Below, piece after piece: positions 36,001-38,802 of a stretch of DNA of 64,000 nucleotides. Position numbers: made by a program. The DNA is from Escherichia coli O157:H7. Its GTDB lineage: Bacteria > Pseudomonadota > Gammaproteobacteria > Enterobacterales > Enterobacteriaceae. Within the stretch, counting starts at the first letter, position 1, and every line of letters starts with the position of its first letter. Location: the NCBI RefSeq assembly GCF_013167455.1, contig NZ_CP038328.1; one strand, written 5' to 3'.

Positions 36001-38802
36001 ATGTGCTAAGCGTGGAGCTACCATTTTCCAGACTGGCCTCAACGGTATCCGGTCTCGCTCCTGATTCTATCGAGGAGCGGGTATTGGTATAAGTGACGGT
36101 AGCCTTACCCTGTTCGTTCGTCACGGCTTGACCGCCATTCGTCATTTCGGCTGTCGCTGCGTTGCTGGTGAAGTTCACAGTCACACCTTTCACCGGAAAG
36201 CCATTATTATCAACGACTGTGGCGGTGATGACGCTGCCGGAGCTGTTCTGCGGGGTACCTGCGATTATGCTGTCTGGGACAGGCGTCAACTCGATAATTT
36301 TTGCCGCCGCTGTGTCGCCAATAAAATGCACAGTTTTGTTGTCGCTGGCACCATTATTAGCCAGTGATGCAGTGACCGTCTGCTCACCAAAGGCAACGCC
36401 TGCGAGAGTGGCCTGCGCGATGCCAGACTCATTGGTATTACTTTCCCCTGGGGTCAGGGTGAGGCCTGAAGAAGCTGTGCTGAATGTTACCGGAAGATTG
36501 TTCACCTCATTGTCGAACTGATCTTTGACCGTTGCAGTTAGCGTTGCGCTATCGACGCCATTACCTGTGATCTCATTTTTTGATATCTGAAGAACAACCA
36601 GAGCCGAGGTTTTGTCCGCCACAAACGTTACCGGCTGTGAATCACTGGTATTGTTATTACTCAGCGTTGCGGTAACCGTATGCGTACCCGCTTTTTTACC
36701 TTTGAGCGTGACATGCGCTTCCCCATTGGCCTGGGTGATGGCAATACCGTTATTTTCGAGGGTAAAGTTTGCCGCCACGTCCTGTGGCATGGTGAAGTTC
36801 ACCGTTATTCCCGCCACCGGATGATTCGACGGATCTTTCACCGTCGCCGTCAGCTGCACGCTGTCGCTGTTATTCGTCACCACCTGTTGAGCAGGGATGT
36901 TCAGCGTAACCTGCGCGTTGCTGGCATCGGGCGCAATATTGACTATCTTCGTATCGTTGTTGCCGTTAGGCAGTGTGGCTTCGGCTGTATGAACACCCAA
37001 AACCGTGCCCTTAAAGGTAACTTCGGCCACACCACTGTCGTTAGTATTGCTTTTGCTCTGACTAAGTTGAGTATCTGCGGGGTTGGTACTGAAGGTGACC
37101 TGTAGATCTTTTACTGCGTTATCAAAAGGATCTTTCACTGTTGCCGTCAGAGTCGTCTCATCCACGCCATTCCCAATGATTTCCGCTTTCGATGTTTGCA
37201 GAACGACAACCGCGCTGTCCTTATCCGCCACGAAGGTGACTGGTTGCGCATCGCTGGCATTATTGTTACCCAGCGTGGCGGTCACAGTATGCGTGCCCGC
37301 TTTTTTGCCTTTGAGGGTGACATGCGCTTCGCCATTGGCCTGAGTGATGGCAATACCGTTATTTTCAAGGGTAAAGTTTGCCGCCACGTCCTGTGGCATG
37401 GTGAAGTTCACCGTTATTCCCGCCACCGGATGATTCGACGGGTCTTTCACCGTCGCCGTCAGCTGCACGCTGTCACTGTTATTCGTCACCACCTGTTGTG
37501 CAGGGATGTTCAGGGTGACCTGCGCGTTGCTGGCATCGGGCGCAATATTGACGATTTTCGTATCTCTGTTGCCGTTAAGCAGTATGGCTTCGGCTGTATG
37601 AACACCCAAAACCGTGCCCTTAAGGGTAACTTCGGCAATACCGTTCTCATTAGTATTACGCGCGTTCAGACTCAGTTGCGTGTCTGCGGGGGAGGTGCGG
37701 AAGACTACTGAAAGATTTTTAACCACGTTATCAAAAGGATCTTTAACTGTTGCTGTCAGAGTCGTCTCATCCACGCCATTCCCAATGATTTCCGCTTTCG
37801 ATGTTTGCAGAACGACAACCGCTCTGTCTTTATCCGCCACAAACGTCATTGGCTGTGTATCGCTGACATTGCTGTTAGCCAGACGAGCCGTGATCATATG
37901 CGTGCCCGCTAACGTGCCGGTCAGGGAGGCGATTGCAGTCCCGTTGCTATCCGTCATGCCTTTTCCGCTGTTGCTAATCGAGAACCGACTTGCGACGTCG
38001 TTTGGCACAGAGAAGGTGATTTCTTTATCTTTTAGTGGATTGCCATTTTTATCCTGCAAGGTTGCAGTCATATGTAGCGGAGCTGTGTTGGTGACGGTGA
38101 TATCACCTGAAGGCACACTGAGGGTCAGGGCAGCAGTACTTTGATCACCGATAAAAATCACCTGTTGATTAGCCTGAGAACCAGAGCTCACAGAGGCCGT
38201 AACCGTATAATCACCATTTTTCAAACTGGTCAGCGTAGCTGTGGCGATCCCGTCGTGGCTATTCACTTCGGTTTGGCTCAGTTTCGCTGCTGCTGAATTG
38301 ACATTGAAGGTGACCTTGACGTCATTGAGCAGGTTGCCTTTTGCATCCCGAACTGTCGCGGTCATTGTGGCACTGTCATTGCCGTCAGCGACCACTTCAT
38401 TTTTCGACTTCTGCAGATCAACCTGCGCGGTACTCGAGTCGCCGACAAAACTGACGATTAACGTTTGTTTCACGCCATTTTCAAGGGTGACTTCAACCGT
38501 GTTGTCTTCCTGCTTACTACTTTTCAGATCAAAAGTCGCCAGACCATTAACATCCGTTTTTGCGGTGTTTTGATTGTTAAAGGAAGTTGCCGATCCGCTT
38601 AATACCGCAAACGTGACGGTATGATCATTGATTGGGTTGCTTCCTTCATCAGCGACATTGACCGAGACGGTGTTTGCTGCATTCTCATTGGCGAGCACAC
38701 CATTATTGCTGGCAGATAATGTCGCAATTTTCGCTGACTGCGGGTTGGCGTCGATGATAAATCCAGCGGTATGCAAATCTTCATTCCAGTTTTGCATTAA
38801 CA

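Follow-up and report, generated by a model that had tools for sequence, protein, structure and literature searches.

A 609-bp two-domain repeat in the yeeJ adhesin gene of Escherichia coli O157:H7 appears to be an old, partly homogenised module with recombinationally variable copy number

Domain-sized DNA repeats that lie in frame, build the stalk of a surface protein, vary in copy number by recombination and evolve in concert are familiar from Gram-positive cocci, among them the alpha C/Rib proteins of group B streptococci and SasG/Aap of staphylococci, whose arrays hold many nearly perfect repeats and vary observably within a strain. The array described here, in the yeeJ gene of Escherichia coli O157:H7, differs from these in having just two diverged units that are apparently stable within the O157:H7 clone. 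Near-identical Ig-domain repeats have also been noted in other inverse autotransporters, for instance in an invasin-like protein of Yersinia ruckeri (work referred to by Goh et al. 2019, PMC6714894). Like yeeJ, such genes carry a tandem Big/Ig stalk array, a known source of both length variation and mis-assembly; their repeats, however, are single Ig domains, described as almost identical and present many times over, whereas the yeeJ module spans two domains, occurs in one to three copies, is 89% identical between copies and retains fixed divergent segments.

For yeeJ itself, a study of 96 genomes (Martinez-Gil et al. 2017, PMC5595812) recognised two variants, distinguished by a 906-bp fragment that encodes three extra Big domains and was said to consist of sequence repeated in the MG1655 gene. 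The long form predominates in pathogenic strains, phylogroup E included, and biofilm assays found no difference between long and short YeeJ (PMC5595812). The UMN026-type and MG1655-type variants of that study concern the same gene and the same site as the repeat analysed here, and the O157:H7 sequence carries the long one. Whereas the earlier work recognised two variants and left the repeat undissected, we resolve a 609-bp unit, the A/B hybrid domain of the short allele together with its junction, alleles with one and three units, and evidence for conversion, drawing on 5,426 genomes. The dimorphism, which has its basis in repeated Big domains, was known before, and the hybrid domain, the one- and three-unit alleles and the conversion signature are incremental additions to it. 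A literature search for further reports of copy-number changes or IS elements in yeeJ returned nothing relevant besides these two papers.

The window is a 64,000-nt stretch of contig NZ_CP038328.1 (assembly GCF_013167455.1), for which a preliminary description had reported a near-identical tandem duplication of about 600 bp at 36600-37830, inside yeeJ. The coding sequence (Table 1) lies within a mechanical ORF of 8,058 nt (32963-41020, minus strand) whose upstream limit is a TTG at 41020. This ORF is 100% identical to O157:H7 chromosomes, in which RefSeq names the product of the identical CDS 'inverse autotransporter adhesin-like protein YeeJ'; that CDS, at 3076-11058 of the O157:H7 locus L002, corresponds to window positions 40945-32963. 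The protein has the two hallmarks of a type Ve autotransporter in a Pfam search, namely an N-terminal IAT_beta barrel (PF11924, residues 144-419, E = 3.7e-112) and a passenger with 16 stretches of Big_1 (PF02369, E = 2e-262) plus Invasin_D3. With the scan set at E <= 0.001, no LysM or C-type lectin-like match passed the cut-off and a weak Invasin_D4 match was found at residues 2472-2529; YeeJ has been described with a periplasmic LysM domain and a C-terminal C-type lectin-like domain (PMC5595812). The gene is flanked by tRNA-Asn and mtfA on one side and by a family-9 glycosyltransferase gene and shiA on the other, the same arrangement as in K-12, and outside the indel it is about 96% identical to K-12 yeeJ. 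Judged by sequence and synteny, we identify it as the orthologue of yeeJ, predicted to encode an inverse autotransporter (type Ve) adhesin, so the placement of the repeat inside yeeJ was correct.

Table 1. Positions of the yeeJ coding sequence, its repeat units and their segments within the window
Feature	Coordinates	Strand	Basis
yeeJ CDS, long allele, 2660 aa + stop	32963..40945	-	ORF list; annotation of identical RefSeq O157:H7 locus; Pfam
Flanking B-type Big_1 domain B0	37832..38143	-	Protein domain map, identity comparison
Repeat unit u1: Big_1 A1 (37535-37831) + Big_1 B1 (37223-37534)	37223..37831	-	Domain map, lag-609 profile
A1-type divergent patch, unit positions 106-200	37632..37726	-	67% to A2 patch
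u1 homogenised core (putative), unit positions 201-555	37277..37631	-	94-96% paralogue identity; site classes, six 2-unit alleles
B1 C-terminal end, unit positions 556-609	37223..37276	-	76% to B2 end at 36614-36667
Repeat unit u2: Big_1 A2 (36926-37222) + Big_1 B2 (36614-36925)	36614..37222	-	Domain map, lag-609 profile
A2-type divergent patch, unit positions 106-200	37023..37117	-	67% to A1 patch
u2 homogenised core (putative), unit positions 201-555	36668..37022	-	Partner of u1 core 37277-37631
Flanking A-type Big_1 domain A3	36314..36613	-	Protein domain map, identity comparison
906 bp absent from K-12/MG1655-type short allele	36830..37735	-	Pairwise alignment, in-silico deletion

All in-frame lags were scanned across yeeJ, and a separate repeat search gave an equal spacing of 609 nt. 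At this lag the top 300-nt window is 95.3% identical, whereas every other lag stays at or below 63.7% in 300-nt windows (lag 1218 being the next best), with 58% as the highest value for unrelated Big repeats of the gene. The similarity of the two units is far beyond chance, and the pair does stand out from the other repeats of yeeJ, as had been proposed. Tandem Repeats Finder detected no short-period array in yeeJ and left the 609-nt array unreported because its longest period is 500. Read from the protein, the domain order is B0-A1-B1-A2-B2-A3, and each unit is in frame and comprises exactly the two Big domains expected, one Big_1 domain of type A and one of type B (99 + 104 aa).

The units had also been called almost identical, which overstates their similarity. 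Over all 609 nt, u1 and u2 share 88.7% of nucleotides and 89.7% of amino acids, and their longest perfect run is 74 nt. Identity is unevenly distributed along the unit, being 96% at positions 1-105, 67% in a patch at 106-200 (95 nt), 94-96% in the core at 201-555 (355 nt) and 76% in the C-terminal end of the B domain at 556-609 (54 nt). The differences in the patch are mostly non-synonymous and those in the B end mostly synonymous; at the protein level, just three residues separate B1 from B2. A third, weaker register extends into the flanking domains A3 and B0 at 55-70% identity; B0 is 40-70% identical to B1/B2, rising to 92% in the last 12 nt, and A3 is 43-73% identical to A1/A2. By these comparisons B0 appears to be an older relative of B1/B2, and A3 of A1/A2.

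To place the duplication in time, we extracted u1 and u2 from five other two-unit alleles, whose genes are 2.4-6.5% divergent from that of O157. In the patch, orthologous units of the six alleles are 86-100% identical and paralogous units 63-70%; in the B C-terminal end the corresponding values are 93-100% and 76-83%. Since orthologues are far closer than paralogues in both segments, the duplication is probably older than the divergence of the sampled alleles. The core behaves differently, with paralogues within a strain resembling each other as closely as orthologues from different strains do (92-97%). Sorting the variable sites of the six alleles into classes gives the same division: the core has no fixed differences and 16 shared polymorphisms, the patch 25 fixed differences and one shared polymorphism, and the B end eight fixed differences and no shared polymorphism, and 34 sites in all differ fixedly between the paralogues. 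The combination of zero fixed differences with 16 shared polymorphisms in the core argues for homogenisation by gene conversion or exchange. Conversion also appears to reach the patch on occasion, since u1 and u2 alike have an A1-type patch in strains 2012C-4221 and NY1601, the two patches of NY1601 being 100% identical. We read u1 and u2 as old paralogues whose core has most likely been homogenised by inter-unit exchange, in the manner of concerted evolution. These alignments set a single bound on the age of the duplication, namely that it exceeds the age of the sampled alleles. When 100,044 species-representative genomes were scanned with the degenerate A-domain motif GNGVDETTLTATVKDPFDN, there were no matches and thus no outgroup.

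The patch and the B end may owe part of their marked divergence to imported foreign sequence rather than to age. In its full form this idea would make the duplication fairly young, with a divergent A2 patch and B1 end acquired from a foreign yeeJ-like allele, which we consider unlikely. Consistent with import, identity drops sharply from 95% to 67% at the patch boundaries, the A2 patch is more polymorphic between alleles (86-100%) than the A1 patch, and yeeJ is mosaic elsewhere too, with blocks of 84-87% identity to K-12. No donor was found, however: neither patch resembles A3 or any other yeeJ domain (43-60% identity), so that the patch divergence has no donor within the gene. Moreover, the mostly synonymous differences of the B end are those expected of old paralogues under purifying selection, and the shared polymorphisms and whole-patch conversions point directly to exchange between the units.

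We next consider the distribution of copy number among 5,426 complete genomes, in which counts of the one- and three-unit classes are lower bounds. The unit was present in 2,909 of them; in 1,272 the coverage of a unit was 80% or more, and in about 1,637 it was 54-55%, as is typical for the K-12 hybrid. Two-unit alleles occur in about 1,200 genomes. The one-unit pattern was found in at least 44, from many hosts, countries and laboratories and several with intact CDSs of 7374-7398 nt, and three-unit alleles were found in at least two (NCTC9038 and GF60). Queries with single patches behaved less cleanly, the A1 patch matching 1228 genomes and the O157-like A2 patch 735 by megablast; the latter is an undercount, because the A2 patch is polymorphic (86-95%) and megablast misses its variants. 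An estimate of some 490 single-unit alleles, taken from the difference between these two counts, was rejected on the same grounds and because some u2 copies carry an A1-type patch. A synthetic three-unit query gave no separation of classes by coverage, owing to megablast extension across the 67% patch, and it was the number of matching places that flagged NCTC9038 and GF60, both then confirmed directly. Three matching places in 61_150228 and RM9872-C1, which had suggested extra copies, were discarded as repeats split by IS insertions.

The structure of the one-unit alleles points to their origin. ACN002 yeeJ, which also carries a frameshift, is shorter than the O157 allele by precisely 609 nt, and its single unit is perfectly chimeric between the two units of EM22-18-53: it follows u1 at positions 1-324 (49 diagnostic sites) and u2 at 330-609 (23 diagnostic sites), and contains no base absent from them. 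Mapped against a panel of six two-unit parent alleles, the crossover of ACN002 thus falls at 324-329 (best parent EM22, 0 mismatches), that of EC12 at 268-306 (NCTC9966, 1 mismatch), that of FT130 at 267-275 (O157-type, 6 mismatches) and that of PEC122 at 207-227 (NCTC9966, 9 mismatches); AR_0077, Santai and WP8 lie 14-23 mismatches from their best parent and have no close parent among the six. Crossover intervals lie between unit positions 193 and 329, and all mapped crossovers fall inside the homogenised core. Every one-unit allele combines the A1 patch with the B2 end, the outer parts of the array. Because best parents and crossover intervals vary, several independent contractions are likely to have occurred, and with a panel of six parents their number is a lower-bound guess.

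The three-unit alleles are the mirror image. NCTC9038 (8591 nt, frameshifted) and GF60 (8616 nt, intact) share the structure A1B1-A2B1-A2B2, and the middle unit of NCTC9038 matches the third unit at 100% over its 5' part and the first unit, likewise at 100%, from the core onward. Such an allele is what we would expect of the reciprocal product of a one-unit contraction, and the alleles with one unit fewer (ACN002, EC12) and one unit more (NCTC9038, GF60) are exact or near-exact single-crossover chimeras, as unequal recombination would produce.

These chimeras also bear on whether the single-module allele is ancestral, with two-module alleles formed from it by duplication, possibly repeatedly. 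The A1 patch and B2 end present in every one-unit allele would fit such a history. We nonetheless judge it very unlikely, since ACN002 (0 mismatches) and EC12 (1 mismatch) are exact chimeras of extant units that differ at about 70 sites; a fresh duplication, moreover, would yield identical units, and the A2 patch and B1 end would have no source in a one-unit allele.

The preliminary description had read the similarity of the units as a sign of recent duplication, which in its strict form means a lineage-specific event in the O157:H7 lineage with too little elapsed time for divergence. The 95% identity of the core over 300 nt and the three-residue difference between the B1 and B2 proteins do look recent, but both units, recognisable by their respective patches and B ends, recur in the five other alleles that lie 2.4-6.5% from O157, their orthologues are far closer than their paralogues in just those segments, 34 sites differ fixedly between the paralogues, and the two-unit form is spread over some 1,200 genomes. 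A recent origin is therefore highly improbable, and the identity of the core is better read as homogenisation of old paralogues.

The same description had proposed a hotspot for slipped-strand or recombinational length variation. The recombinational half of this stands, in view of the one-, two- and three-unit chimeras; the slipped-strand half does not. Programmed, high-frequency phase or length variation by slipped-strand mispairing, as at a contingency locus, is scarcely credible here in spite of the existence of alleles with one, two and three units, for the gene contains no short-period array and a unit of 609 nt is unsuited to such slippage. As the unit is also in frame, changes in copy number would never switch expression. 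The two-unit allele is kept in about 300-350 O157:H7-type genomes with no copy-number change seen, and a synthetic one-unit O157 query matched no record at 99% identity or above in the 5,426 genomes, so no contracted O157-type allele was present among them. This constancy argues that the array is not a fast contingency locus, and we take it to be a recombinational length hotspot that probably acts on evolutionary timescales and not within the O157:H7 clone.

That the duplication, or its absence elsewhere, is a product of mis-assembly is barely conceivable: repeats of this size do collapse in short-read assemblies and some variants come from frameshifted or older assemblies, but complete O157:H7 genomes, hundreds of them and independent of one another, all show the same two-unit structure, one-unit alleles recur across laboratories, hosts and countries with intact frames, and the three-unit CDS of GF60 is intact. 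Individual one-unit alleles in older assemblies, such as ACN002, could still be assembly collapses. For the O157 allele, which had been flagged as a likely collapse site, no stretch of perfect identity exceeds 74 nt and the risk is correspondingly modest; alleles that have lately undergone expansion or conversion, NCTC9038 and NY1601 for example, would pose a greater risk.

K-12 had been expected to carry a shorter allele, and it does, though the difference is not the loss of one unit. Aligned to the yeeJ of the window, the K-12 allele lacks exactly 906 nt, all within the repeat, which makes the window allele the long (UMN026-type) form. The missing segment runs from just past the ...TATVKDP codons of A1 to just past those of B2, and its loss leaves the first third of A1 joined to the last two thirds of B2. 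K-12 YeeJ accordingly contains a chimeric domain made of the first 32 residues of A1 (KDRAVVVLQTSKAEIIGNGVDETTLTATVKDP) and the remainder of a B2-type domain (SNHPVAGITVNF...), and the junction is an 11-nt microhomology, GTGAAAGATCC, common to A and B domains at the ...TATVKDP motif. Removing the segment in silico left 7152 nt, the K-12 length, with 96.4% ungapped identity to K-12. From the alignment, the hybrid domain and the in-silico deletion, we infer that the short allele arose by an out-of-register deletion at microhomology that kept the Ig-fold register. The hybrid could have come from a two-unit allele by loss of 906 bp or from a one-unit allele by loss of 297 bp. Since K-12 YeeJ is located at the surface and promotes biofilm formation when expressed (PMC5595812), the chimeric domain is compatible with function.

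Taken together, we assign a probability of about 85% to the following account. The extracellular YeeJ stalk contains an array of 609-bp (203-aa) A+B modules, two of them in this allele, that are old paralogues with a core held at about 95% identity by exchange; unequal recombination generates one- and three-module alleles, and a separate microhomology deletion gave the widespread K-12 type. Mechanistically, the homologous core supports in-register unequal recombination that yields one-module alleles repeatedly and the reciprocal three-module alleles less often, and conversions of a whole patch between modules also occur. The crossovers would presumably be of RecA type, between sister chromatids or between alleles, and conversion tracts may be blocked or limited at the patch and the B end by sequence divergence itself. 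A slippage-type illegitimate event at the conserved ...TATVKDP strand may have produced the 906-bp deletion of K-12. At the level of the protein, these events are predicted to change the length of the stalk by one to three Ig-like domains. By analogy with invasin, this amounts to a few nanometres per Ig domain.

Such changes in length invite a functional interpretation, in which the two-domain module is a selected length 'rheostat': repeated module gains and losses, and with them the half-domain fusion of K-12, would tune the reach of the YeeJ lectin tip past O-antigen or capsule according to host, and the A-domain patch, which is non-synonymously diverged, distinct between the units and more polymorphic in u2, would be under diversifying selection by immunity or ligand. 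The published predominance of long alleles in pathogenic strains (PMC5595812) hints in this direction. We regard the interpretation as doubtful, however, given that the sole functional test saw no difference between long and short forms (PMC5595812).

For users of genome data, the practical consequence is that yeeJ has at least four length classes, namely the hybrid short allele and alleles with one, two and three modules. RefSeq labels many of these alleles just 'Ig-like domain-containing protein' or as frameshifted, and gene-presence, GWAS and cgMLST schemes built on a K-12 or O157 reference will mis-score the repeat segment. The repeat poses no new biological question: adhesin stalks are well known to vary in repeat number, and the two YeeJ forms are already in the literature, with no phenotype detected (PMC5595812). 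For protein evolution, yeeJ is a single gene in which unequal crossover acts alongside gene conversion, and in which a deletion at microhomology has left a viable chimeric Ig domain. The yeeJ repeat is real but ordinary: an old, partly homogenised two-domain module whose copy number is variable by recombination.

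Within the 3′ portion of yeeJ, two blocks were just 84-87% identical to K-12, compared with 95-100% in the remaining gene, and the same blocks were also present in ACN002, a strain with a single-unit allele. At the level of sequence, this suggests allelic mosaicism through recombination outside the repeat as well. Within the repeat, the divergent 95-nt segment of domain A behaved differently in its two copies, with between-strain identity of 86-100% for the A2 patch of the second unit (window 37023-37117) vs 95-100% for the A1 patch of the first (37632-37726), making A2 clearly more polymorphic. 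Substitutions between the A1 and A2 patches were mostly non-synonymous; as read from these alignments, the pattern may mean that selection on one face of the second A domain is relaxed or diversifying. The repeat also contains two ORFs (171-176 codons) running antisense to yeeJ; in all likelihood they are spurious and stem from the codon composition of the repeat.

Features in and around yeeJ and in the yeeJ loci of other strains
Feature	Location	Strand	Remark
Low-identity block vs K-12	window ~34420-34720		gene nt 6300-6600
Low-identity block vs K-12	window ~33670-33820		gene nt 7200-7350
Antisense ORF in repeat	window 37196-37711	+
Antisense ORF in repeat	window 37614-38144	+
tRNA-Asn	window 41259-41334		upstream of yeeJ
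tRNA-Ser(cga)	window 42326-42415		far side of mtfA from yeeJ
ORFs adjoining tRNA-Ser(cga)	window 42443 to 46223
IS1203 / split glycosyltransferase region	window ~30491-31704, within ~30300-32701	minus	annotation of identical O157:H7 locus
IS1203/IS3 in yeeJ	L005 (61_150228) 4301-5706
IS1203/IS3 in yeeJ	L021 (SS TX 754-1) 5812-7213
IS1203/IS3 in yeeJ	L007 (RM9872-C1) 6820-8115
IS1203/IS3 in yeeJ	L004 (90-3040) from 7204
IS1203/IS3 in yeeJ	NCCP 13918 (database match H3)

The mechanically called yeeJ ORF begins at a TTG, and the annotated ATG (MATKK...) follows 75 nt later (window 40945-41020); the K-12 start has been argued to lie 18 codons further downstream (PMC5595812). In RefSeq, the annotated length of some alleles is 24 nt greater (7398 and 8616 nt), and start-site annotation is thus inconsistent between genomes. 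Many full-length alleles in RefSeq complete genomes are also labelled 'frameshifted' from length differences of 1-2 nt (YZ_2_1, EM22-18-53, KK05-19, ACN002 and NCTC9038; loci L009, L010, L011, L006 and L019, respectively); these may be real pseudogenes or homopolymer errors of long-read assembly.

Upstream, a frameshifted tyrosine integrase, a DUF4224 gene and an exonuclease gene adjoin tRNA-Ser(cga), an arrangement that looks like the end of a prophage inserted at this tRNA gene. Directly downstream of yeeJ, a family-9 glycosyltransferase gene, uninterrupted in several other strains, is interrupted by IS1203 (IS3-family), whose transposase carries a programmed frameshift; coordinates for both were transferred from the annotated identical O157:H7 locus.

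In several STEC/O157 genomes, IS1203/IS3 insertions break yeeJ itself, within or beside the repeat region and in some cases accompanied by small deletions alongside. These insertions are independent events, and yeeJ has therefore been pseudogenised repeatedly in the STEC/O157 group.
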